In this document: positions 2,618-30,589 of the stretch, piece by piece
How the letters are laid out: every line of letters starts with the position of its first letter
How positions within the stretch are numbered: the stretch's first letter is position 1
Assembly: GCA_964355785.1 (NCBI GenBank)
Contig: CAYHEU010000001.1
Span: 1 to 35,207, forward strand
Reading direction: 5' to 3'
Length of the DNA: 35,207 nucleotides
Source: an uncultured Candidatus Saccharibacteria bacterium
GTDB lineage: Bacteria; Patescibacteriota; Minisyncoccia; UBA6257; 2-01-FULL-56-20
Notes under the pieces: generated by a model
The model's input: only the letters and a program-made list of their open reading frames with translations
Database searches by the model: none
Told to the model about the DNA's origin: nothing
Made by a program: the position numbers and the translations under genes

Positions 2618-3241
2618 ATGCAAAAACGCGTTTTCATAATTCACGGTTGGGATAGCTCCCCTTACGACGCATGGATCCCATGGCTTTGGACGGAGCTCGA
2701 GAACCATGACTTCAAGGTGGAGGTTCCTCTAATGCCGAACGCACAGGCGCCGGAGATAGAAATCTGGGTGAGCCACTTGAAGAATCTCGTGGGCGATCCG
2801 GACGAAGAAACTTATTTCGTGGGACACAGCGTCGGATGCCAAGCCATTATTCGCTATCTCGAATCACTCGAGGAAGGAACGAAAGTCGGCGGCGCAGTTT
2901 TTGTGGGAGGGTGGTTCACCTTGAGCGGTGATGCAATGAAAACCGAGGAGGAAAAGGAAGTTGCCCTCCCGTGGCTCGAGACGCCAATTGATTTCGAGAA
3001 AGCGAAAAGAGTCACGACGAATTTCGCCGCAGTGCTTTCAGATAATGACCCCTATGTACCCCTCAAGGACAATAAAGAAATTTTTCAAGAAAAGTTCTCT
3101 GCCCGAGTGATCATCGAGCACAACAAGGGACATTTCAGCCGAGAAGACAACATTACCGAGCTTCCGATCACGCTCGATCTGCTTCTTGATATGGTATATC
3201 AAAAAGATAAATTAGGCGTGGATGAGGAAACTTCTTCTTAG
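2618..3241 (+). CDS. Alpha/beta serine hydrolase (YdeN/RBBP9-like Ser_hydrolase family)
   Basis: 207 aa. FIIHGWDSS, nucleophile elbow VGHSVGC, LSDNDPYVP and HNKGHF form a Ser-Asp-His arrangement typical of this family. The ATG is only 7 nt after the tRNA-Ala 3' end. Confidence 0.8.
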   Translation: MQKRVFIIHGWDSSPYDAWIPWLWTELENHDFKVEVPLMPNAQAPEIEIWVSHLKNLVGDPDEETYFVGHSVGCQAIIRYLESLEEGTKVGGAVFVGGWFTLSGDAMKTEEEKEVALPWLETPIDFEKAKRVTTNFAAVLSDNDPYVPLKDNKEIFQEKFSARVIIEHNKGHFSREDNITELPITLDLLLDMVYQKDKLGVDEETSS

Positions 3242-8409: not shown

Positions 8410-9468
8410 ATGGAAGACAAAAAAATCATCTCCACCATCAAAAAGGTGATGCCTGCGGTCGTTTCGATCATAATCTCAAAACACCTTGAAGATATCGAAA
8501 AAGAAATCCCGCCGGAACTTTATCCTTTTCTTCCCGTTGATCCAAGCGACCCGGCTCACCCGAAACTTAAGATACCCGATGCACTCGTCGACAAGCGCGG
8601 CATGGTGAAGATCGGGGGCGGATCCGGCTTCATAGTAGAGTCTGATGGCCTTATCCTTACGAATAAGCATGTGATCAGCGACCCGAAGGCGGAATATACG
8701 ATCATCGCGGATGATGGCCGGAGGTTCAGCGGAGAAATCTTGACCCGCGACCCCATAAACGATGTCGCAATCCTTAAAATCAACGCATCAAATCTTCCGC
8801 GGGTGTTGCTCGGCAATGCCGCAAAACTTGAGCTTGGCCAAGGCGCAATCGCAATCGGAAACGCTCTGGGGCTTTTCAAAAATACCGTTTCTTTGGGCAT
8901 AATATCAGGACTCTCGCGTTCAATCTCCGCACAGGCGGATCCAAAATCCCCGCCGCAGGAAATGCGGGGGCTTATCCAAACGGACGCGGCAATCAATCCG
9001 GGAAACTCCGGCGGCCCCCTCGTGGACCTCTCCGGCTTCGCGATCGGCATAAACGCCGCAATCGTCTTTGGCGCCCAAAACATCGGCTTTGCGATTCCCA
9101 TAAACGCCGCGAAGCGGGATCTTGACGATCTCAAAAAATTTGGACGCATCCGGCGTCCGCTCTTAGGCGTCCGCTATATTACGATCGACGACAACCTCAA
9201 GGAAAAAATGAATTTGCCGGTAAGCTACGGGGCGCTCGTAATGCGCGAATCACCGCACGATCACGGCGTGCTTCCAAACGGACCCGCACACAAAGCCGGC
9301 ATCCGCGAAAAAGACATTATTCTCGAATGTAACCACAAGAAGGTTGACCGCGACCACCCTATCCAGGATGTTCTCGAGAACTTGAATGTCGGCGATATCC
9401 TCGAACTTCTCGTGCTCCGCGGCGAAAAAAAGTTCCCCGTAAAACTCACGCTCGCAGAGAGAAAGTAG
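8410..9468 (+). CDS. HtrA/DegP-family (S1C) serine protease with C-terminal PDZ domain
   Basis: 352 aa. Catalytic triad contexts LTNKHV (His), NDVAILKI (Asp) and GNSGGPLVD (Ser). PDZ-like C-terminus (GALVMRE…GDILELLVLRG). Confidence 0.9.
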   Translation: MEDKKIISTIKKVMPAVVSIIISKHLEDIEKEIPPELYPFLPVDPSDPAHPKLKIPDALVDKRGMVKIGGGSGFIVESDGLILTNKHVISDPKAEYTIIADDGRRFSGEILTRDPINDVAILKINASNLPRVLLGNAAKLELGQGAIAIGNALGLFKNTVSLGIISGLSRSISAQADPKSPPQEMRGLIQTDAAINPGNSGGPLVDLSGFAIGINAAIVFGAQNIGFAIPINAAKRDLDDLKKFGRIRRPLLGVRYITIDDNLKEKMNLPVSYGALVMRESPHDHGVLPNGPAHKAGIREKDIILECNHKKVDRDHPIQDVLENLNVGDILELLVLRGEKKFPVKLTLAERK

Positions 9469-9501
9469 AACAGCGAGTAGAAAGTAGGCGGTAGAAAGTA
9501 G
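9466..9501 (+). repeat. Heptad-periodic TAG array (left arm, GTAG heptamers)
   Basis: Plus-strand TAG at 9466 (the htrA stop), 9478, 9485, 9492 and 9499. The last four are spaced exactly 7 nt apart, so all three frames are closed. The arm is imperfectly complementary to the right arm at 9873..9903. Confidence 0.8.
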
Positions 9502-9514
9502 AGCTTTCAAGAAA

Positions 9515-9865
9515 ATGACCGGTGGATACAAAAATCTTATTGTGTGGCAAAAAGCGAAACTGCTTGCGATAGAAGTCTACAAACTAACCGACAACTTTCC
9601 AAAATCAGAAGTTTATGGCATTAGCTCGCAAATGCGCAGGGCGGCAGTTTCTATTCCCTCTAATATAGCTGAGGGTTATCGCCGGCACCATCACAAAGAA
9701 CAACTCCAATTTTTCAGAATAGCTTTCGGTTCGGGTGCGGAACTTGAGACTCAAATCGAAATAAGCAAAGAGATTTTCCCTCAATACAAATTGAATTTCA
9801 CAAAGGTGGAAATTCTGCTTGAGGAAATAATGAAAATACTCAACAAGCTAACTTTAGCCGATTGA
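9515..9865 (+). CDS. Four-helix-bundle protein (23S rRNA intervening-sequence protein / Avd-like family)
   Basis: 116 aa. YKNLIVWQKA…LAIEVYKLTDNFPKSE…ISSQMRRAAVSIPSNIAEGY…FFRIAFGSGAELETQIEIS is the hallmark pattern of this family. Confidence 0.85.
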   Translation: MTGGYKNLIVWQKAKLLAIEVYKLTDNFPKSEVYGISSQMRRAAVSIPSNIAEGYRRHHHKEQLQFFRIAFGSGAELETQIEISKEIFPQYKLNFTKVEILLEEIMKILNKLTLAD

Positions 9866-9872
9866 TCGCGCC

Positions 9873-9903
9873 TTACTCTCTACTCTCTACTTGCTACTCT
9901 CTA
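9873..9903 (-). repeat. Heptad-periodic TAG array (right arm, read on the minus strand)
   Basis: Plus-strand CTA at 9880, 9887, 9894 and 9901, which reads as minus-strand TAG every 7 nt. The last one is the stop codon of the 9901..10809 gene. CTACTCT heptamers. Confidence 0.8.
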
Positions 9904-10809
9904 GTATGTGTAGAGATCCACAAGGAGGCCGTTCTGATCGAGGAGAAGCACTCTGTCGTGCCGAAAATCAAGGAACTTGCTGTTTGGGCCGGTGTTCCCC
10001 GTCCACGCACGAACTTCTCTCCCAAGAAAATCCTCGTCGTTCTGATATTTTTCAAAACACCCGCGGTAGTTGATTTTATTCAAATACGCACGGCATTCGT
10101 AGTCGTCGAGCGCAATCGGCGGGTTCGATTCCGGCTCTGCGCAGTAACCGAGGGAATAAATATAGTCCTGACACTCACCGCGAAACCTCGAGATTCCATA
10201 CGAATCGACGATCGAAGGACAACCTCCGTAAAGCGGCGGATTAAAGTCGTAGTACTTCTCGAGATAGCCGAGGCACTTGTTAAGCCGCAAGTTGCGGCCG
10301 ATGGGACTTACCGTTGAGTAAATATTTAAGGAATCGCCGCTCCGCAGATAAATGTTGTTTTCCGGAGCATTCCCGAGCGGATCATAAACCTGAACGGCGC
10401 GATAAGGAACATTTTGAAAGCTTTTGTTCCCTTGGAGGCGCCAGCCCTTGAGCGGAATCGCGCGTTCGCCGTCGAACCATGCCGAAAGGACGATTTGGCT
10501 GTAATCGTCCGGAGAACCCGGGAATGCGGTCGCAATTCTCACCTTGTGGAAATAGGGTGAGAGCTGGTCGAGCGTAAATCCTTGGGGAATTTCTCCGGGG
10601 TCAATACTCGGAAGATTCCCTTGCGGCGGGGGCTCTTCCTGTGGTGGTTCGTTTTGCGGCGGAGGAATATTTTCCCCTCCCTCGTGAACCGCTCCTTTGG
10701 TCGACGTTGAATTTTCTCCTAGAGGACCCTGGAGCCGCCCCGGCTGATTTACATAAATCGCGGCTCCGATAAGAACGGCGAAAATTACAATTCCAAAAAT
10801 CCTCCCCAT
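9901..10809 (-). CDS. Membrane-anchored secreted protein, possible lamin-tail-like (LTD) domain plus Cys-rich C-terminal region
   Basis: 302 aa. GGAGG RBS. N-terminal TM helix IFGIVIFAVLIGAAIYV, a Pro-rich linker, then …IVLSAWFDGERAIPLKGWRLQGNK…IYLRSGDSLNIYS (LTD-like pattern), followed by 6 Cys. Confidence 0.75.
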   Translation of the reverse strand: MGRIFGIVIFAVLIGAAIYVNQPGRLQGPLGENSTSTKGAVHEGGENIPPPQNEPPQEEPPPQGNLPSIDPGEIPQGFTLDQLSPYFHKVRIATAFPGSPDDYSQIVLSAWFDGERAIPLKGWRLQGNKSFQNVPYRAVQVYDPLGNAPENNIYLRSGDSLNIYSTVSPIGRNLRLNKCLGYLEKYYDFNPPLYGGCPSIVDSYGISRFRGECQDYIYSLGYCAEPESNPPIALDDYECRAYLNKINYRGCFEKYQNDEDFLGREVRAWTGNTGPNSKFLDFRHDRVLLLDQNGLLVDLYTY

Positions 10810-10818
10810 ACCTCCTAA

Positions 10819-13800
10819 TTAAACCACGATATTTATCAAACGTTGAGGAACGTAGATCACGCGCTTCGGCTTTTTCCCCGCGAGAAACGCCGTTATTTTC
10901 TCTCTCCGAAGTGCGGTCTCTTTTGCATCAGATTCGGAAATATCCACATTGACCTCAACGCTGTCCCGAACCTTACCATTCACCTGAATTACCAACATAA
11001 ACTTTTCATCTTGAATAAGGCGTTCATCGTACGAAGGCCACGGCGAAATGTGGATTGAGTTCTTGTTTCCCAAAACATTTCTCCAAATCTCCTCGGTAAT
11101 GTGGGGCGCAAACGGGGCGAGGAGCTTGAGAAAATCTGAATAAGATTTTTTATCAGTCCCCTTTTCAAGTTCGGATAAAAGAATCATAAGCGAGCTTATT
11201 GCCGTATTGTAATGAAGATTTTCTATATCCTCGGTGATTTTCTTAATTGTTTTATGTACCAATCGCTCAATTTTCTTATTCGTGGCATTCGAGTTCATTT
11301 GGAGATTTGCATTGTGTTCTAATTTCCAAACCCGTTCCAAAAATCTCACCGGTCCCAAAATCCCCGCATCGCGGAAATCGCCGCCTTCCTCAAAGGGACC
11401 GATAAACATAAGATGCATACGGAGCGCATCTGCGCCAAATTTTTTGATGAACTCATCGGGGTTCACGATATTTCCCCGCGACTTTGAAATCTTTTTTCCT
11501 TCACGGATCAAAAGACCGTGCGCGCGAAATTTTTTTGCAGGTTCGTCTCCGCCCGAGGCGGATCCGCCTTTGGCGGAAAAAGGTAAAATCCCTAAGTCAC
11601 AAAGCGCTTTCCACATAAACCGGACGTAGAGAAGGTGGAGTACCGCGTGCTCCGCGCCGCCGATATACATATGAACCGGCAACCATTTTTTTATCCTGAG
11701 CTTGTCGAAGGGCGAATTCTTATCTTTTGGATCAAGATAGCGAAGATAGTACCACGCAGAATCAAGGAATGTGTCCGAAACGTCGGTTTCGCGAACCCCT
11801 TTTGCGCCACAGTGAGGACACTTCACCTCATAGAACGACCTTACCGTCGCAAGCGGCGATTTTCCCATGCCTTTCGGACGGAAATTTTTTACTTTCGGAA
11901 GTTCCACCGGCAAATCATTTTCTGGAACCGCATGCCAACCGGGCATATCATCCCTCTCGCCTCTTTTCTCCTTGGCACACGCCCCGCAGTAGATCATTGG
12001 AATCGGCGGCCCCCAATAGCGCTGGCGCGAGATCAACCAATCACGGAGGCGGTACTGGACCTTTTTTACTCCTCCGACATCACGCATCACCTTATCGCTA
12101 TCCACGAGCGGCGCATCGCTCGCGGGAAGCCCGAACATTTCCGCGAACTCCGCATCCCGCTCATCGTGCGCGGGGACGGCCATAATGGCGCCCGTGCCGT
12201 AACCCATAACCACATAATCAGCAACCCAGATGGGAATTTCTCGTTTTGTTCCGGGATTCATTGCCTCCACTCCTTTAAGCTCCACGCCTGTTTTCTTTCT
12301 TCCCTCGGCAATCCGCTCGTTTTCGGATTTCTTCTTTGCTCTTCTCACATATGCCTCAACTTCCCGAAGATTTAAGATCTGAGATTTTCCGCCCGAGGCG
12401 GATCCGCCTTTGGCGGAAAGATTTGAGATCAGTGGATGCTCTGGCGCAAGCACCACGTAGGTTGCGCCGTAGAGCGTGTCGGGACGCGTGGTGAAAACTT
12501 TTATTGTGGGCAACAGAGTATTTAATATAAGAGGTTCTTGCGCTCCTGTAAGATGCTCTTTATGTGCAAATCCTTCAATAAATTTAGTTTGTAATTTATC
12601 GCGCAAGTATTCTAAGTATGGACCTCGCTTATCTTTCTCCAGGGAATCGGAAATTATGGTTACAGAATTGCTCAATTTTTTCAGCAATTCGTAGTCATAT
12701 TCAAATGAAAAAGTTTTCCAAAATGGCCTCTCTTCGCCGGTACGAAAACGAGGCTCTACGGCTGGGGCAACAAGAACAAGCCCAGCGATGGGACGATTAA
12801 TCTTTTGCAATACTTTCATGGCTACTACTCCTCCTAAGCTATGACCAACGATAATAGTGTGCTCATTTATTCGGCAATTTTTAACAACATAATCAACTTG
12901 TTCCGATTCTACGGGATGATCAGTATTAGGCATTTGAGGTGCTTGGACACCAAAACCCTGTTGCTCCAGTTTCTCTTTTAACCACGGAATGAAGTTCTTA
13001 TTTACATGGCCAGTATAACCGTGGAGGATCAAAAAATTGGTATTTTTATTCAATACAACCGGAAAATCTATCTCCGTGCCTTCCGACTTCCCTATCCAGT
13101 TCCGCTGGGCAACTTTGATTCTCTCCGACCAATCAAGACCGTCCAGGTCTTTAATAAGGCGCTCGGCGTACTTGGTAATCCTGAAAAACCACTGTTCAAG
13201 CTCTTTTTTCTCCACGACAGAATCGCAGCGCTCGCATTTCCCGCCCGAACGACTGACGTCGCTCAGTCGGGCGGGCCCGCCAACAACCTGCTCGTCGGCT
13301 AAAACCGTGAGGCACGAGGGGCACCAGTTTACCGCCTGCTTTCTGCGGTAAGCCAGTCCGTTCTTGAACATTTGGGTGAAGATCCATTGCGTCCATTTGT
13401 AATACTTTGGATCAAAGGTTTCCAGATGCTCATTCCAAGCAAAACCATTGCCAATTTCACGGAGTTGGCGATAGAAGTTTTTCTCTGAAATTTTCGCTTG
13501 CTCGGCAGGATGCTTCTTTGTTTTCAATGCATAGTTTTCGGAGTGGATTCCAAAGCCATCAAGCCCGATCGGCTCGAAAACGTCATTCCCCTGCATCCGT
13601 TTCACGCGCCCATAGATATCGGATCCAACGAACGCATACATATTCCCGACATGGAGGCCCTCTGCCGATGGATATGGGAACATCATTAGGTTATAAAAAG
13701 GCGCAGCCTTTTTACCATGAGCCCGTCGAAGGGCAGAATGGTCACCTTGAGCGAAGGAGGGCTCATAAACCCCCTCTTTTAACCACTTGCTTTGCCAGTA

Positions 13801-13830
13801 TTTTTCTATCCTCTTAAAATCGTATTTCAT
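10819..13830 (-). CDS. leuS: Leucyl-tRNA synthetase with several in-frame insertions, including an alpha/beta-hydrolase domain
   Basis: Class I motifs: PYPSAEGLHVGN (HIGH-like) and KISKSRGN (KMSKS). Also NWCPSC…CERC Zn motif, NWIGKSEG, VFTTRPDT, YGTGAIMAVPAHDERD (CP1 editing domain) and RLRDWLISRQRYWG. Start placed at M18 (MKYDFKRIEKYWQ), which matches the conserved LeuRS N-terminus. The ORF itself extends up to 13881. Confidence 0.95.
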   Translation of the reverse strand: MKYDFKRIEKYWQSKWLKEGVYEPSFAQGDHSALRRAHGKKAAPFYNLMMFPYPSAEGLHVGNMYAFVGSDIYGRVKRMQGNDVFEPIGLDGFGIHSENYALKTKKHPAEQAKISEKNFYRQLREIGNGFAWNEHLETFDPKYYKWTQWIFTQMFKNGLAYRRKQAVNWCPSCLTVLADEQVVGGPARLSDVSRSGGKCERCDSVVEKKELEQWFFRITKYAERLIKDLDGLDWSERIKVAQRNWIGKSEGTEIDFPVVLNKNTNFLILHGYTGHVNKNFIPWLKEKLEQQGFGVQAPQMPNTDHPVESEQVDYVVKNCRINEHTIIVGHSLGGVVAMKVLQKINRPIAGLVLVAPAVEPRFRTGEERPFWKTFSFEYDYELLKKLSNSVTIISDSLEKDKRGPYLEYLRDKLQTKFIEGFAHKEHLTGAQEPLILNTLLPTIKVFTTRPDTLYGATYVVLAPEHPLISNLSAKGGSASGGKSQILNLREVEAYVRRAKKKSENERIAEGRKKTGVELKGVEAMNPGTKREIPIWVADYVVMGYGTGAIMAVPAHDERDAEFAEMFGLPASDAPLVDSDKVMRDVGGVKKVQYRLRDWLISRQRYWGPPIPMIYCGACAKEKRGERDDMPGWHAVPENDLPVELPKVKNFRPKGMGKSPLATVRSFYEVKCPHCGAKGVRETDVSDTFLDSAWYYLRYLDPKDKNSPFDKLRIKKWLPVHMYIGGAEHAVLHLLYVRFMWKALCDLGILPFSAKGGSASGGDEPAKKFRAHGLLIREGKKISKSRGNIVNPDEFIKKFGADALRMHLMFIGPFEEGGDFRDAGILGPVRFLERVWKLEHNANLQMNSNATNKKIERLVHKTIKKITEDIENLHYNTAISSLMILLSELEKGTDKKSYSDFLKLLAPFAPHITEEIWRNVLGNKNSIHISPWPSYDERLIQDEKFMLVIQVNGKVRDSVEVNVDISESDAKETALRREKITAFLAGKKPKRVIYVPQRLINIVV
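11548..11577 (-). repeat. Double-hairpin mini-element, family 2 (copy 2), in frame in leuS
   Basis: The sense strand TCCGCC-AAA-GGCGGA-TCCGCC-TCG-GGCGGA is exactly 10 codons (SAKGGSASGG) in phase. It is identical to 12388..12417. Confidence 0.85.
12388..12417 (-). repeat. Double-hairpin mini-element, family 2 (copy 1), in frame in leuS
   Basis: Same 30-mer (32 nt identical when flanks are included), encoding SAKGGSASGG at residues 489-498 of the ORF. Confidence 0.85.
13240..13275 (-). repeat. Structured palindromic mini-element, family 1, in frame in the leuS Zn-finger loop
   Basis: The sense strand CCCGCCCGAC-TGAGCGACGTCA-GTCGTTCGGGCGGG is exactly 12 codons (PARLSDVSRSGG, ORF codons 203-214). 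It sits between VVGG and KCERC. Same termini and same fold as 2257..2291. Confidence 0.85.
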
Positions 13831-13922
13831 TTTTTCTGCCTGCCCGCCGTAGTCCCGCAAAACGGAACGAAGGAGGGCCAATATTTTTCTATTTTTTGGA
13901 AGTTATAACTCTTCATTCAATA

Positions 13923-15353: not shown

Positions 15354-15384
15354 GGAGTGGTGAAATTCACCGCTCCGCTTTTTT
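15354..15384 (+). terminator. Rho-independent terminator
   Basis: GGAGTGGTGAA / TTCACCGCTCC stem (one G-U pair) followed by GCTTTTTT. The U-tract overlaps the convergent tatD stop. Confidence 0.7.
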
Positions 15385-16213
15385 ACAAACCAAAAATCTG
15401 CTTCGCATTCTCAAAAATCCGCCTTTTCATCTCCTCCACCGAAACATTTTTAAGTTCCGCCAATTTTTTAACGACTTCAACCACATACGACGGTTCGTTG
15501 CGTTTACCACGATACGGAGCCGGAGATACGTATGGCGCATCGGTTTCGCTTAATATCCTATTCATAGGGAGCATCTTAATAACTTCGTCGTAATCGCGGG
15601 CGAATGTAATAACTCCGCCGAAAGTAAACAAAAATCCCATATCCAAAAGTGTTTTAGCGTCTTCTTTCGTACCGCTAAAGAAGTGAATGATGCCAGGATT
15701 GGGACGATTTAAGATTTTAGATTTAAGATTTAAGATTTCAATTAAATCCGCGAATGCCTGGCGACAATGGATCATCAACGGCTTCTTTACCTCGTTCGCA
15801 AGCTCAATTTGTTTTATAAATGTTTCGGCCTGTTTCTTCTTCGTTTCCTCGCCCAGACGGTAATAATCCAAACCACATTCCCCTATTGCCACAACCTTCG
15901 GGTCAGCGGCTAATTTTTTATAATAGTCGTAATCAAACGCTTCCCCGCGACTCGTAAATTCTTTCGCTTTATCGTCTGCGCCCAATTCTTTTATATCGTG
16001 ATAGGACTTCTCCGTATGAATTGGATGAAGCCCAATTGCAGCATAGACACCTTCTTTATACAAATTCGCAACCTCAACCGCTTTTTTTGAGGTATCTCTC
16101 TGCGTTCCGACATTCACTATCCAAACATTATTTCCGAGCGCACGGTCAATTACATCTTTCCGGTCCTCTTCGAATGCGGCAAACTGAACGTGGGTGTGGG
16201 CGTCAAAATACAT
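15383..16213 (-). CDS. tatD: TatD-family metal-dependent hydrolase/DNase
   Basis: 276 aa. MYFDAHTHVQF (HxH), IGECGLDY, LMIHCR, GIIHFFSG and SETDAPYV are canonical TatD motifs. Confidence 0.9.
   Translation of the reverse strand: MYFDAHTHVQFAAFEEDRKDVIDRALGNNVWIVNVGTQRDTSKKAVEVANLYKEGVYAAIGLHPIHTEKSYHDIKELGADDKAKEFTSRGEAFDYDYYKKLAADPKVVAIGECGLDYYRLGEETKKKQAETFIKQIELANEVKKPLMIHCRQAFADLIEILNLKSKILNRPNPGIIHFFSGTKEDAKTLLDMGFLFTFGGVITFARDYDEVIKMLPMNRILSETDAPYVSPAPYRGKRNEPSYVVEVVKKLAELKNVSVEEMKRRIFENAKQIFGL
15706..15740. repeat. Five tandem heptamers (GATTTAA-like) inside the tatD coding sequence
   Basis: GATTTAA GATTTTA GATTTAA GATTTAA GATTTCA, encoding …EILNLKSKILN… on the minus strand. Related to the TAGGATT arrays found at gene boundaries. 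Confidence 0.75.
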
Positions 16214-16222
16214 GCGAGAATA

Positions 16223-16248
16223 TAGGATTTAGGATTTAGGATTTAGGA
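16223..16248. repeat. Heptad-periodic stop array (TAGGATT x3-4) at the metG/tatD junction
   Basis: Plus-strand TAG at 16223, 16230, 16237 and 16244. Minus-strand TAA at 16229-31 (the metG stop), 16236-38 and 16243-45. Exact 7-nt period on both strands. Confidence 0.85.
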
Positions 16249-21449: not shown

Positions 21450-22109
21450 TTACTGTTCCGCTTTTTCGCTCTCCGCTTTTTCACCCACCCGCTCTGCTTT
21501 CTTCTCTTCCGTTTCAACCTTCACGGCGCTCACATCCACCGGCTCAACAACTTTTTCTTCCTCCTTCACAGGAGGCATTGCAGTTACAATCGCCGTGTCT
21601 GGCTCGGTCAGGACTCTTACGTCGGGCGACACCCGAAGATCACGCACATAAATACTTTTGCCAAATTGATCGAGAACCTCGAGATTTACCTCAAACGAGT
21701 GGGGTAAATTTCCCGGAAGCGCTTCAACCTCAACATCGGCGAGCGTCTTATTGAGGAGTCCTCCCTGCTCTTTGACTGCAGGCGCCTCGCCCACGAAAAC
21801 GATCGGCACGGGAACCTTAATCTTTTCATCTATCCGTATCTGATAGAAATCAACGTGGCTTATCTCCCCGGAGAGATAATCGCGCTCTACATCGTGCACA
21901 AGCGCGGGTTTTTTCTCTTTTCCGACAACAAGATTGATCACCGTGTTCTCCCCGGCAACTCTGTATACCTTCTCGAAATTCTTTGCGTTTAGGGCAAGAT
22001 GAAGATTTTCCACTCCGCGCCCATAGAGCTCCGCGGGAACGAGGCCTTCTTTTCGGAGCGCTTTATTCGCTTTTCCAAATTTTTCCCTTGTTTCTACGGC
22101 TAAATCCAT
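21450..22109 (-). CDS. rplY: 50S ribosomal protein bL25 (Ctc form)
   Basis: 219 aa. REKFGKANKALRKEGLVPAELYG… N-terminus, two-domain length and an acidic/Lys-rich tail. Confidence 0.85.
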   Translation of the reverse strand: MDLAVETREKFGKANKALRKEGLVPAELYGRGVENLHLALNAKNFEKVYRVAGENTVINLVVGKEKKPALVHDVERDYLSGEISHVDFYQIRIDEKIKVPVPIVFVGEAPAVKEQGGLLNKTLADVEVEALPGNLPHSFEVNLEVLDQFGKSIYVRDLRVSPDVRVLTEPDTAIVTAMPPVKEEEKVVEPVDVSAVKVETEEKKAERVGEKAESEKAEQ

Positions 22110-22162
22110 GCGAGAAGCATAGCAAAAGAACGAATTCGACGCAACCTCGCCCTTATAAGAAT

Positions 22163-22234
22163 TAGAGAGTAGCTTGTAGCCAGTAGTGAGTAGGAAGAAC
22201 TTTTGATTTTCTACTTACTACTCTCTACTTTCTA
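22163..22234. repeat. Cargo-less inverted pair of heptad TAG arrays
   Basis: Left arm has plus-strand TAG at 22163, 22170, 22177, 22184 and 22191. Right arm has plus-strand CTA (minus-strand TAG) at 22211, 22218, 22225 and 22232, the last being the thyX-like stop. About 17-nt spacer. The reverse complement of the right arm, GCGAGTAGAAAGTAG, is identical to 15 nt of the left arm at about 9473-9487. Confidence 0.85.
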
Positions 22235-23953
22235 CTCGCTTTTGTTTGGAGAACTTTCCCCTACCCCCTGCCTCTTTTTCGCAAGTTTCTCGACAATATC
22301 CTTTTCTTTCTCGGAGATTTTCTCTTCTGTGCCGCGCCGCGCAATTGCGTAGTCGTTCATGTCCACAAGCATGAAACTCGCAAGAAGCGGAAATTTTTCT
22401 TTCACCAACCGATACTTTTCCTGCTCAATAAACCGGTAGTCGGGATGTCCTTGGGAAATGGTGCGAAGCTCTGTTTCCCAAAAAAGCTGACGGAAGTTCT
22501 TCCATTGATAAAATCGGAGGCGATACGCGAGCGGTACGACGTACTGCGCAAGAACCGGATCTTTCTCTTCGATCTTTCTGAAAAATGCGCTCGCTCCTTC
22601 CAAAGCTTCCCGGAATTGGCCCTCAAGGCCCGCCTCGGGGATTTCCGGCGGGACATCATAGCCATGGTGAGTCGAGAAGTATTCGCGATCCTGCGTCATC
22701 ATCCGGTGGCGGTGGAGATCTCGATAACTCCCGATATTCATCGTAATCTCAAAACGCAGGTATGAATTCTCAAACGCACGTCCGACTTTGTGCCAGCGCG
22801 CCGAACGATTCAAAAGATAGAAGCTTATTATTTCTTTTCGCTCCGATCCGGAAAGTTCTCTTGCGATCTGAAGCACTCTTTCCCATGTTGCGTGGGTGGC
22901 GGGAAAAATTATTCCCGCAATAATTTTTTCCTCCGCACGCGGGTCGCACTCCACGAGTTTCACCTCGGGCTTCGTCCCTCCTTTTTCGAGCAATTTCCCC
23001 TCTTCCGCATGCCGGGAGCTTTGGAGAAAACGGTGAACGGCCGCGCTCCGTTCGGCAAGATACCGCTGATATCCCTCCGATTTCTCGTCCCCAAGCCGCA
23101 AAAGAAGCGAAGGAATCTCGTTATCCAGTTCTCGCTTCACGGCGGAGGAAATCCACCGGAGTTCTCCCAAGGAATGCTTTGCGGTGCGATTAATCAAATA
23201 TTCGAGGGCCTGCGCATTCCCCCGGAACGCAACCTGCCCCAAGGTCGCCATAGGAAGAAGCCCCCGAAGGGTGTCGAACGCTTTTTTCTCCAAGACGGAT
23301 TCTTTTTCCTCGTAATTCTCCTTAAGCCACGCGAGAAGCCGCGGCAGGAGCTCCACGTAGGTATCAAAAAGATGGTCTAGCGTTTTCCGATACTCAGGAA
23401 GGATTCCGAGGCGTTCAAGATCCGGCTTCGGAATATAGTAGAGATAGCGATCCCTAATTTTCTTCCCAAAATTTACGTAGCGCGTGGATTTCTCGATCGG
23501 TTCGAGCCCAATCCGCTGATCCTCAACGAATTTCATCGCAACCTGCGAAATCCCCCAGAAGAGCACGTGCGTGCCCGTCATCTGGGCAATAGAGTCGTCG
23601 CCGTACTGGGAGAGCCACTTTGCATAAAATTCCTGCGCGCGCTGATTATTCAAGATATTTTTAAATCCCCGTTCGCGGAGAAAACTCACCGTCTCCTCGA
23701 GTTCTTTCGCGAGCGCTTTGTTTTCGCCCTCAAGGATCGGATAGAAATATTCCTTGAGAAGCACGCGGAGGAGCGAGTGCGGCGCACGGCTCGCGCGCGA
23801 ACAGAGCGCCCCTACGATCTCCGGCGGCAGGTTCCGAAGCACGTGCACGAGGCCGTCCACGTTTGTTGCGAACGGCTCCAAAAGGAATTTATCTTTTTCC
23901 GACCATTCTTCCCCGGGAAAATCGGGCGCGTACGCGTCTCTACTCTCCGGCAT
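22232..23953 (-). CDS. Long ThyX-like (FAD-dependent thymidylate synthase family) protein
   Basis: 573 aa. …GALCSRASRAP… and …YRDLHRHRMMTQ… resemble ThyX signatures. It is about twice the canonical length, and the RHR-x7-S serine is not at the canonical spacing. Confidence 0.6.
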   Translation of the reverse strand: MPESRDAYAPDFPGEEWSEKDKFLLEPFATNVDGLVHVLRNLPPEIVGALCSRASRAPHSLLRVLLKEYFYPILEGENKALAKELEETVSFLRERGFKNILNNQRAQEFYAKWLSQYGDDSIAQMTGTHVLFWGISQVAMKFVEDQRIGLEPIEKSTRYVNFGKKIRDRYLYYIPKPDLERLGILPEYRKTLDHLFDTYVELLPRLLAWLKENYEEKESVLEKKAFDTLRGLLPMATLGQVAFRGNAQALEYLINRTAKHSLGELRWISSAVKRELDNEIPSLLLRLGDEKSEGYQRYLAERSAAVHRFLQSSRHAEEGKLLEKGGTKPEVKLVECDPRAEEKIIAGIIFPATHATWERVLQIARELSGSERKEIISFYLLNRSARWHKVGRAFENSYLRFEITMNIGSYRDLHRHRMMTQDREYFSTHHGYDVPPEIPEAGLEGQFREALEGASAFFRKIEEKDPVLAQYVVPLAYRLRFYQWKNFRQLFWETELRTISQGHPDYRFIEQEKYRLVKEKFPLLASFMLVDMNDYAIARRGTEEKISEKEKDIVEKLAKKRQGVGESSPNKSE

Positions 23954-26185: not shown

Positions 26186-27181
26186 TTATATTTCCCTCGG
26201 AAAATATCCTTCGGGCGGGCGCGCAAGGAAAGATTCGAGTTCGTTGCGGCCGAGAAGCCCTTCGCGCGCCCCAACCTTCTGCACTACCGACATTGAGTTC
26301 ACTGGAGCCCACCGGAGCGCTTCTTTTATATCAAGTCCCAGCGCGAGCGCAACGGTAAAAGTCGATGAGAATGCATCCCCCGCACCGGTGCGCTCAAGCG
26401 GCGGCTTAGGATCCGGATAGGGCGGCATAAACCATATCGTCTCTTTCTCCATCGCATAGGCGCCTTCTTTCCCGTCTGTAATCACGGTGATTTTTGGCCC
26501 AAGCGACTGGATTCCCTTGAGGAGAATTTTGATGTCGCTCTCGCCTTTGAGTCCCAAGATGCGCCGCGCTTCTTATTTGTTGCAGAAAAACACCTCCGAA
26601 AGCTTGTAGATTACGGCCAACTTTTCTTTCCCCGCCTTAATCTGAAACGTCCCCGGCTGGAACGCGAGCTTGATCTTGGGATGCGCCGCAAGATACTCCT
26701 TGATCTCGCGGTGGAACGGGCCGCTCTCCTCTCCCAAGGAGGAAAGATACATCCATTTCGGATCCCCTATCGCGGGAAGTGCGTAGGGATACTTTTCATG
26801 CTTGATAAGAATAGTACGATCGTCCTCGTACCAGAGCACATAGTGATAATTCGTCTTCTCGCCCTTGTGCACCGCAACAAAGCCGGTCGCAACGTTTTCT
26901 TTCTTTAAGGCATCAAGACACTCCTTGCCGAAGTAGTCGTCTCCGAGGTTTGAAACGAGCGCGCTCCGGAGCCCCAGACGTGAGGCGGAGACCGCCGCGT
27001 TTGAGCTATTCCCGACCGCCGGAATTATATACACATCCTCGTAGGGAATCTTGTCCCCAAACCGCATGCAAATTTCGCAACGCTCGTGCCGCAGATCGCA
27101 GTGGACGGAAGCGTCCTTGAGCCGGATAAAGGCGTCGGTCACAATGTCGCCGATGGCAATGAAATCGTAGGATTGTTTCAT
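26186..27181 (-). pseudogene. PfkB-family carbohydrate (ribokinase-like) kinase interrupted by one in-frame TAA
   Basis: The N-part 26573..27181 (…AVGNSSNAAV…) and C-part 26186..26557 (…TGAGDAFSSTF…) are in the same frame. They are separated only by TAA at 26573-26575. The sequence reads …VFFCNK*EARRILG…, where the family normally has N-x-E-E-A. Confidence 0.75.
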
Positions 27182-29843: not shown

Positions 29844-29881
29844 TAGGAATTAGAATTTAGGAGTTAGTATTTAGGCAATAG
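29844..29881. repeat. Heptad-periodic stop array at the rpe/tkt-N junction
   Basis: Plus-strand TAG at 29844, 29851, 29858, 29865, 29872 and 29879, an exact period of 7 repeated six times. Minus-strand TAA (plus TTA) at 29850, 29857, 29864 and 29871. Confidence 0.85.
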
Positions 29882-29884
29882 ATT

Positions 29885-30562: not shown

Positions 30563-30589
30563 AGGATTTAGGATTGAACCGATAGACCT

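Follow-up and report, generated by a model that had tools for sequence, protein, structure and literature searches.

Genes of the PF05635 four-helix-bundle family are, as a rule and across phyla, packaged between two inverted arrays of a short tandem repeat, most often a heptamer. The package that led us to this rule is a cassette at positions 9462–9905 of a 35,207-nucleotide (nt) stretch of DNA, hereafter ‘the window’, from an uncultured Candidatus Saccharibacteria bacterium (assembly GCA_964355785.1, contig CAYHEU010000001.1, positions 1–35,207). Its arrays, or ‘arms’, enclose a single gene for a protein of 116 amino acids (aa), and in related genomes arms and gene come and go together. The arrangement recalls the intervening sequences (IVSs) found in ribosomal RNA (rRNA), but here it stands between protein-coding genes, instead. 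To our knowledge, PF05635 is still without a function, more than 30 years after it was discovered inside rRNA IVSs, and we know of no explanation, after about as long, for the tandem heptamer repeats of bacterial intergenic regions. The packaging of PF05635 genes between inverted, cassette-specific heptad arrays ties these two puzzles together. What appears to be new here is the family-wide heptad packaging; an IVS-type cassette outside rRNA, as we propose for the window, would be a variation on the known rRNA IVS.

HEPTAD ARRAYS FLANK PF05635 GENES ACROSS PHYLA

Eighty PF05635 loci were retrieved from GTDB contigs, one genome per species, and a further 80 from metagenome contigs formed an independent replicate. 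For each gene, the 100 nt upstream were scored against the reverse complement of the 100 nt downstream, and scores of at least 10 were counted as high. Other genes within the same loci, scored identically, were the controls; gene calls in these related loci are based on open reading frames (ORFs). Complementary flanks—high scores—accompany 54 of 77 PF05635 genes in the GTDB genomes versus 6 of 148 neighboring genes (Mann–Whitney p = 1.9e-23), and 54 of 72 in the metagenome replicate. The two sets agree: 70–75% of PF05635 genes have complementary flanks versus ~4–6% of their neighbors. Against a null model in which flank partners are permuted between loci, 39 of 76 PF05635 loci exceed the 99th percentile. 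Pooled, 15 of 263 controls score high, and six of these 15 are divergent four-helix-bundle paralogues with arms of their own. The original prediction had raised two possibilities about such genes elsewhere, that they too would be flanked by arms, and that the arms would prove to be generic heptad arrays with no preference for this gene. The first is borne out by these counts and the second is not.

Tandem arrays, called by Tandem Repeats Finder at lenient settings within 100 nt of the ORF, occur in at least one flank of 139 of the 145 loci (96%) and in both flanks of 100. Their period is 7 in ~75% of cases and 8 in ~20%. Upstream, the number of copies peaks sharply at 4–5 (80 of 116), and the arms lie close to the gene: the median gap is 17.5 nt to the start codon and 6 nt from the stop codon. 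By eye, nearly every PF05635 gene has repeats of ~7 nt upstream and their reverse complement downstream. The heptad itself varies by genome: GGTTAGT, GGCAATG, CGTATGT, CAGTGAA, GGGTATA and AGCGTWT are among those found. Arms were seen in Patescibacteria, Bacteroidota, Clostridia, Planctomycetota, Acidobacteriota, Gammaproteobacteria, Nitrospira and cyanobacteria, and cassettes are present on plasmids of the cultured cyanobacteria Nostoc punctiforme (GGGTGTA arms), Trichormus (Anabaena) variabilis and Picosynechococcus PCC 7003. The family is large—20,153 clusters at 50% identity match the 116-aa query—and packaging between inverted heptad arrays is its rule across phyla.

Several individual loci merit description. 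On Picosynechococcus sp. PCC 7003 plasmid NZ_CP016476.1 the cassette (126543–126899, L190) is embedded in a type III-B operon, with cas10 on one side and cmr3 on the other, and has GGAGATA/TATCTCC arms. A ‘CRISPR association’ of 23S_rRNA_IVP has been reported (PMC3936711, PMC10910872), and operon-embedded cassettes such as this one may be its mundane explanation. Related cassettes on Nostoc PCC 7120 pCC7120gamma (L185) and on a plasmid of Stanieria NIES-3757 (L189) have an extra inner leader, in which ACTTCAAACTT is repeated, between the left arm and the ATG; the leader is preceded by a TTGACT...TATAAT-like promoter, and CTTCTGC/CCTCTGC arrays lie downstream. Because of this promoter-like sequence, some cassettes may have gained promoters of their own. 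Many database proteins of 240–630 aa (P0272–P0327) begin with a four-helix-bundle domain, and at four of our loci (L107, L115, L121 and L152) the ORF continues past the usual stop into downstream sequence. Judging by sequence, these are either real fusions or the products of read-through after loss of the stop codon.

THE CASSETTE IN THE WINDOW

The cassette and the two genes that border it are arranged as follows:

8410–9468, + strand: upstream host gene, HtrA-like serine protease (Trypsin_2 and PDZ domains), co-directional with the cassette gene
9462–9503, + strand: 5' arm, about five nRAGTAG heptads, the last unit ending 13 nt before the ATG
9515–9865, + strand: four-helix-bundle gene, 116 aa, matching the PF05635 and TIGR02436 profiles
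9870–9905, + strand: 3' arm, 4–5 CTACTYn heptads, the reverse complement of the 5' arm motif
9901–10809, – strand: convergent host gene, 302 aa, without a family match; occupied and empty sites were located through orthologues of this gene

In the 5' arm, TAG occurs on the + strand at 9478, 9485, 9492 and 9499, in steps of 7 nt, and also at 9466, where it is the stop codon (9466–9468) of the HtrA-like gene. In the 3' arm, TAG recurs every 7 nt on the – strand between 9880 and 9903, and the outermost CTA (9901–9903) is the stop codon of the 302-aa gene. These inverted heptad-TAG arms had been picked out by the original prediction, and they hold up to measurement. Aligned over 29 nt each (9472–9500 and 9874–9902), they are 79% complementary; as RNA, their duplex has a predicted energy of –34.2 kcal/mol (z = –3.0 versus shuffled 3' arms), and the minimum-free-energy fold of the whole region has them paired. 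An imperfect RNA stem of ~30 bp, as originally proposed, is possible, in other words. With at most one mismatch, GTAGNNNGTAGNNNGTAG has 10 matches in the window versus 0.02 expected, all of them within the four arms of the cassette and of a second, gene-less hairpin described below.

The arms bracket the 116-aa ORF and nothing else, as had been claimed. The ORF belongs, by sequence comparison, to the PF05635/TIGR02436 four-helix-bundle family: it matches all 106 positions of the PF05635 profile (E 2.7e-35, 121.2 bits, cutoff 33.8), and matches TIGR02436 at 114.5 bits (cutoff 24) and the structure of XCC0516 (PDB 2GSC) over residues 6–87 (E 2.1e-17). The family motif is (G)xxRxxxSxxxNxxE (Lin 2006; Zhang 2013, PMC3936711). 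RxxxSxxxNxxE is present as R42-AAV-S46-IPS-N50-IA-E53 and is invariant in the alignment; the leading G is replaced by Q39.

Rfam finds no rRNA in the window—three tRNAs are its only matches—and the claim that an IVS-like architecture exists here outside any rRNA stands. Scans for promoter and terminator consensus found none, either at the window's cassette or at the gene-less hairpin. An intrinsic, perhaps bidirectional, terminator was considered and set aside: neither 9300–10050 nor 22000–22400 has a terminator-like site, that is, a short G+C-rich stem followed by a T run. The probable source of transcription for the cassette gene is the HtrA-like gene upstream.

The window is Parcubacteria-like DNA, within the Patescibacteria, and comes from Hainich groundwater. 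No RNA run containing the cassette region was found. Contigs assembled from four groundwater sequencing runs (Logan contigs, X1–X4) end at or near the heptad arms (9470–9510 and 9865–9905), and a separate 584-nt contig from these runs matches only the right arm (9870–9902), with three differences. Heptad arms break short-read assemblies, and similar arms occur elsewhere in the community. The arms thus flag a source of assembly breaks. Among these contigs, which are of low depth only and break at the arms, no joints indicative of excision or inversion were seen.

ARMS AND GENE FORM ONE UNIT

Through orthologues of the 302-aa neighbor, the junction between it and the HtrA-like gene could be followed in eight lineages. 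It is occupied, with nRAGTAG arms, in the window, in L163 (93% neighbor identity), in L176–178 and in L179–184; the last two groups contain the closest homologues of the four-helix-bundle protein, at 74% and 71% identity, respectively. It is occupied in L168/169, too, where the gene is reversed with respect to the flanks. It is empty in L164 (80% neighbor identity), L165–167 (51%) and L170 (54%), and at all of these empty junctions heptads are absent as well: the convergent genes overlap by 7 nt or stand 6–17 nt apart. Gene and arms, then, come and go together. The presence/absence polymorphism foreseen in the original prediction is real. In a tree of the neighbor gene the occupied lineages span the whole clade, with the empty ones interspersed, a pattern that would follow either from an ancestral cassette and at least three near-precise losses, or from repeated gain.

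Paralogous cassettes within one contig or genome carry different heptads (L037, L093 and L105, among others), and the heptad diverges along with the protein. At least six of the seven heptad positions are common to 68% of pairs whose proteins are 70–85% identical, versus 3% of pairs at 40–50%, and heptad similarity correlates with protein identity (Mantel r = 0.33, p = 0.001). Heptad-free empty junctions, paralogues with different heptads, and heptad similarity that tracks protein identity argue together that the arms are part of the cassette. We are highly confident of this architecture, and that arms and gene constitute one unit, rather than a gene lodged in a host site. The number of heptads in a cassette changes fast: L179 and L184 encode an identical protein but have ~8 and 4 heptads, respectively. 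No target-site duplication was recognizable when occupied and empty junctions were compared, the junctions themselves having diverged (53–80% neighbor identity), and no transposase domain was found in or beside the cassette.

GENE-LESS HAIRPINS

A hairpin with the same architecture and no ORF occurs elsewhere in the window, much as the original prediction had said:

22160–22196, + strand: left arm, 4–5 nnnGTAG heptads
22197–22210, no strand: loop, ~14–17 nt, without an ORF
22211–22240, + strand: right arm, four CTACnnn heptads

At its core is a 33-nt inverted repeat (22164–22196 and 22208–22240), 76% complementary, with four heptads on either side and a fold energy of –26.7 kcal/mol (z = –3.2). 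It sits between the gene for a ThyX-type thymidylate synthase (22232–23953, – strand), whose stop codon (22232–22234) falls inside the right arm, and the gene for L25. The predicted 15-nt identity between the two loci is confirmed: GCGAGTAGAAAGTAG occurs at 9473–9487 on the + strand of the cassette and at 22225–22239 on the – strand of the hairpin. With at most two mismatches it has five matches versus 0.06 expected, all in the four arms. By its sequence, then, the hairpin is a gene-less copy of the cassette's arm family. A 95% relative (L173) retains the hairpin, likewise empty, and a 73% relative lacks it. We found no relative in which the site is occupied: in L174 an unrelated spacer of 410 nt takes its place, and L175 has a different neighbor.

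Pairs of this kind recur in other genomes. Near cassettes we found 17 gene-less hairpins, and 9–10 of the 17 carry the heptad of the resident cassette (p = 2.7e-5). The gene-less hairpin in the window would be either a derivative akin to a miniature inverted-repeat transposable element (MITE) or an extra site for binding or processing; as to its origin, a target is a third candidate beside these two.

The window also contains heptads of a second family, TAGGATT (= GATTTAG), as solo direct arrays at 16223–16248, 29844–29884 and 30563–30575. They occupy three intergenic spacers of minus-strand operons—between the genes for methionyl-tRNA synthetase and TatD, rpe and transketolase, and rpiB and rpe—and each stops a few nt short of the start codon downstream. 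The repeat also supplies the final codons of the methionyl-tRNA synthetase gene (..LNPKS*). In other genomes of the Candidate Phyla Radiation (CPR), A/T-rich heptads (GATTTAG, AATTTAA) flank a divergent four-helix-bundle subfamily with the motif SGTSVGANY, and a second paralogue, of this subfamily and with GATTTAG arms, is therefore predicted elsewhere in this genome. Five GATTTAA/GATTTTA heptads, at 15706–15738, lie within the TatD DNase ORF (15383–16213, – strand), where they are read in the sole open frame and encode ..EILNLKSKILN..; a heptad array seems to have been inserted here, in frame, into coding sequence.

CONSTRAINTS ON THE ARMS

Among relatives of the window's cassette, the first position of the heptad is random, the second is a purine, the third and fourth are A and G (55 of 66 each), and TAG follows. 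TAGs are spaced by exactly 7 nt in 49 of 55 cases, across lineages in which the neighbor protein is only 43–54% identical. The heptad is, in short, a conserved core—AGTAG here—at an exact 7-nt phase, with two free positions. TAG-type heptads close two or three reading frames from either side at 79 of 107 loci.

The G-rich array comes first, on whichever strand one reads, at 93 loci versus 10 (p = 5e-18). We considered treating this as a polarity relative to the gene, and rejected the idea: an array followed by its own reverse complement reads identically on both strands. G-first polarity belongs to the palindrome itself and so does not distinguish a gene that was inverted from one that re-inserted; it survives when recombination between the arms flips the gene, as in L168. 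Orientation of the gene is another matter. By crude ORF calls, the cassette gene is co-directional with both neighbors at 94 of 119 loci, and antisense to both at five. This bias, together with the lack of promoter and terminator consensus in the window's cassette, points to expression by read-through and to selection for it.

HOW THE CASSETTE MIGHT WORK

The explanation we prefer, at about even confidence, is that the locus is an IVS-type PF05635 cassette in an mRNA, rather than an rRNA, context. The heritable unit would comprise a G-rich array of 4–5 heptads, the promoter-less 116-aa ORF and the same array inverted. Read through from the HtrA-like gene, the cassette would be co-transcribed with the host operon, and in the transcript its arms would pair as an interrupted stem of ~30 bp, looping out the ORF. 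RNase III would cut the stem, as it does in rRNA-borne members, uncoupling the insert from the host transcript and insulating the host transcripts. The TAGs, present in all three frames on both incoming strands, would cleanly end the flanking genes. The arms would be read, in addition, by a multimeric factor, for which the encoded protein is the most economical candidate, its homologue XCC0516 being a homopentamer. Recognition by such a factor is suggested by the conserved core at fixed phase, the uncompensated spacers, the 4–5 copies, the G-rich arm that comes first and the cassette-specific motif, and it explains the strict phase, the core, the copy number and the cassette-specific motif better than pairing alone.

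Not everything speaks for this account, and several results weigh against it. When the order of units in one arm is permuted, complementarity is not lowered at 22 of 25 loci (median z = 0.4), and only 3 of 25 are significant for mirrored unit order between the arms. Arm complementarity is due mostly to the shared 4–5-nt core, not to mirrored order. On the sense strand, mismatches between the arms show no wobble bias (G:U 46 versus A:C 42), which fits a model at the level of DNA or of protein sites and weakens the case for a selected RNA helix. A stem broken every 5 bp by mismatches of 2 nt makes a poor classical substrate for RNase III. Solo direct arrays show no clear bias relative to transcription (18 C-rich and 10 G-rich on the sense strand), and their occurrence in both orientations misfits a simple operator model based on the 5' untranslated region. 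That the four-helix-bundle protein itself binds the heptads is a tentative proposal—we infer sequence-specific binding from the arrays—and the match between 4–5 copies and a pentamer is only suggestive.

Several adjustments follow. The notion of the arms as a finely selected helix was dropped, since permutation of the units reveals mostly no mirrored compensation. The permutation and mismatch results indicate, instead, that the stem consists of two inverted arrays of one core motif with uncompensated spacers. The wobble test on the sense strand neither proves nor excludes RNA pairing, and our analysis leaves a stem processed by RNase III a little short of an even chance.

ALTERNATIVE EXPLANATIONS

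The strongest rival, which we consider unlikely yet worth taking seriously, is that the cassette is a DNA element of the foldback or MITE type. The inverted arrays would be terminal sites for a recombinase or transposition factor—the four-helix-bundle protein or a recruited host enzyme—and the cassette would transpose, invert and excise as DNA, with the solo hairpin a non-autonomous, gene-less derivative. Much is consistent with this: the joint presence or absence of arms and gene at one orthologous junction; the inverted gene in L168/169; the gene-less hairpins that share the heptad of the resident cassette; and the variation in unit number beside an identical protein (L179 versus L184). The symmetric mismatch spectrum and the lack of inter-arm compensation fit inverted sites on duplex DNA, and a DNA element would equally explain the clean losses. 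Ralph and McClelland's proposal that the IVS ORF serves mobility, as relayed in PMC4990558, points the same way. Against it, the cassette has been kept at the same junction while the neighbor protein fell to 43–54% identity, and the cassette protein (70–74%) is better conserved than the neighbor. No target-site duplication is recognizable at the occupied and empty junctions, nor is this 116-aa family known to have a catalytic domain. The 94:5 excess of genes co-oriented with their operon speaks for selection on expression rather than random insertion, and the inversion in L168/169 is explicable by ordinary recombination between inverted arms.

An IVS-type cassette in mRNA also has to be weighed against the reading first proposed for this locus: that hairpins pre-exist at the ends of host genes, as terminators or processing sites, and that the gene enters or leaves their center. 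We now think this improbable. It draws on the gene-less hairpin with the same heptad in the same genome, conserved in the 95% relative L173, and on the pairs of occupied cassette and gene-less hairpin in other genomes. On the other side, all three empty orthologous junctions are without heptads, paralogues in one genome differ in heptad, and the heptad co-diverges with the protein; nor was an occupied orthologue of 22160–22240 found in the relatives compared (L173–L175). The insertion of the gene into a ready-made host hairpin is the part of the original prediction that our comparisons do not support.

Chance can be set aside almost completely: heptad repeats are indeed common between genes, with arrays in the window at 15706, 16223, 29844 and 30563, away from the four-helix-bundle gene, and about once per 4–5 kb in the flanks of related loci, but the excess of complementary flanks at PF05635 genes over their neighbors in both sets, the way the arrays abut the ORF, and the fixed G-first polarity of the inverted arrangement (93 versus 10) are not what a gene merely lying among them would display.

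Beyond the cassette in its mRNA context lies a bolder idea, speculative at this stage: that PF05635 proteins and tandem heptamer arrays constitute one widespread and unrecognized protein–repeat system. Every paralogue would have a 7-nt code of its own, read at one heptad for each subunit of a pentameric ring, and its gene would be packaged between two inverted copies of that code. Solo arrays and hairpins would be further sites for the same protein, including the short tandemly repeated repetitive sequences (STRRs) of cyanobacteria, TAACTGA in Beggiatoa, GGGAATC in Xanthomonas, and the window's own TAGGATT and GATTTAA arrays. The IVSs of rRNA would be cassettes that landed, by chance, in rRNA loops. 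If true, this would explain both what the family, with its more than 20,000 clusters (at 50% identity), does and why heptamer repeats exist. Both puzzles become testable in cultured strains: Nostoc punctiforme, Trichormus variabilis, Picosynechococcus PCC 7003 and Xanthomonas.

OTHER FEATURES OF THE WINDOW

Four further features of the window were noted. At 2260–2611, the 5' half of a tRNA-Ala (GGGCCTATAGCTTAGTGGCA), into which a G+C hairpin is inserted, precedes an 82-aa GIY-YIG ORF (2306–2554, Pfam E 7e-12) that overlaps the start of an intact tRNA-Ala(TGC) gene at 2540–2611. The arrangement resembles a GIY-YIG element that has copied a portion of the tRNA it targets. Leucyl-tRNA synthetase (10819–13881, – strand; 1020 aa) has an alpha/beta-hydrolase (Ser_hydrolase) domain inserted at residues ~283–396; the insert is faint in the L168 orthologue (1005 aa) and absent in those of L165 (868 aa) and L170 (867 aa), and a free-standing Ser_hydrolase gene is present at 2618–3241. 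The ThyX-type thymidylate synthase beside the gene-less hairpin is 573 aa long, about twice the usual length, and matches Thy1 only C-terminally; the long form is common among Patescibacteria, where many matches are 550–590 aa long and ~70% identical. Finally, the gene for a PfkB-family sugar kinase (26186–27181, – strand) is split into two adjacent ORFs, 26573–27181 corresponding to the N-terminal part of the profile and 26186–26557 to the C-terminal part. Either the gene has been broken, by a frameshift or in some other way, or the split is a sequencing error.

COMPARISON WITH KNOWN SYSTEMS

Among systems studied by experiment, the closest to the cassette are the 23S rRNA IVSs of Leptospira, Coxiella burnetii, Haemophilus and Brucella, which hold the same protein family in the loop and whose terminal inverted repeats likewise form a stem of ~28–30 bp around the ORF. 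In the Coxiella 23S IVS, a 28-bp terminal stem encloses the S23p ORF, and three tandem GACAGAT heptamers stand just upstream of it; the repeat is present two to three times, in strain-variable number, and the first repeat is where RNase III cuts in vitro and, as mapped ends suggest, in vivo, too (PMC4990558). Here, 4–5 nRAGTAG heptads end 13 nt before the ATG, and the strain-variable number is echoed by L179 and L184. The differences are of place and of sequence: the element lies between the HtrA-like and 302-aa genes, not in 23S helix 25 or 45; its heptad is nRAGTAG rather than GACAGAT; and RNase III cleavage, known in Coxiella, is only a prediction from sequence in the present case.

The Avd proteins of diversity-generating retroelements (DGRs) share the homologous four-helix-bundle fold. 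Avd is a pentameric accessory protein that handles nucleic acid, and XCC0516 is a pentamer of four-helix bundles, too (2GSC). The 116-aa protein has a weak match to the bAvd profile in Pfam (E 7.6e-6). We rejected membership in this group: the scores are 26.8 bits for bAvd (cutoff 40) and 22.6 for NF033474 (cutoff 80), a scan of 38 ORFs of the window found no reverse transcriptase domain, and the window contains no recognizable template/variable repeat pair.

MITEs, Correia elements and foldback transposons are short inverted-repeat elements that sit at gene ends, like the cassette, and are co-transcribed with their neighbors, as the cassette is predicted to be; Correia elements are substrates for RNase III. 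Gene-less copies beside coding copies are a further likeness to MITEs and foldback elements, exemplified here by the shared 15-mer and by the pattern in other genomes, and the arms of foldback elements are likewise built from tandem short repeats. The cassette differs in its long vertical persistence and its conserved, small, non-enzymatic ORF, and neither a transposase domain nor a recognizable target-site duplication was found.

A parallel in manner of working only is the trp RNA-binding attenuation protein (TRAP), which recognizes 11 GAG/UAG triplets: a short core, fixed spacing, free spacers and a copy number near the number of ring subunits. The folds are unrelated, and binding by the four-helix-bundle protein is purely something we infer.

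The heptamer repeats described previously from other bacteria bring the comparison full circle. In Beggiatoaceae, TAACTGA repeats lie immediately 5' of start codons and leave none of the three reading frames open (PMC4679880), and in Xanthomonas 70–75 of ~185 GGGAATC sites are convergent inverted pairs (PMC4692102). Like the arms, these repeats and the cyanobacterial STRRs are tandem 7-nt units, in 2–14 copies, intergenic and genome-specific. PF05635 and S23p go unmentioned in the two papers just cited, and we found no publication that links PF05635 generally to heptad arrays, or that extends heptad arms beyond Coxiella; coverage of subscription journals was partial, and an earlier description is possible. 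The taxa with STRRs, TAACTGA and GGGAATC repeats encode PF05635 genes, as well.

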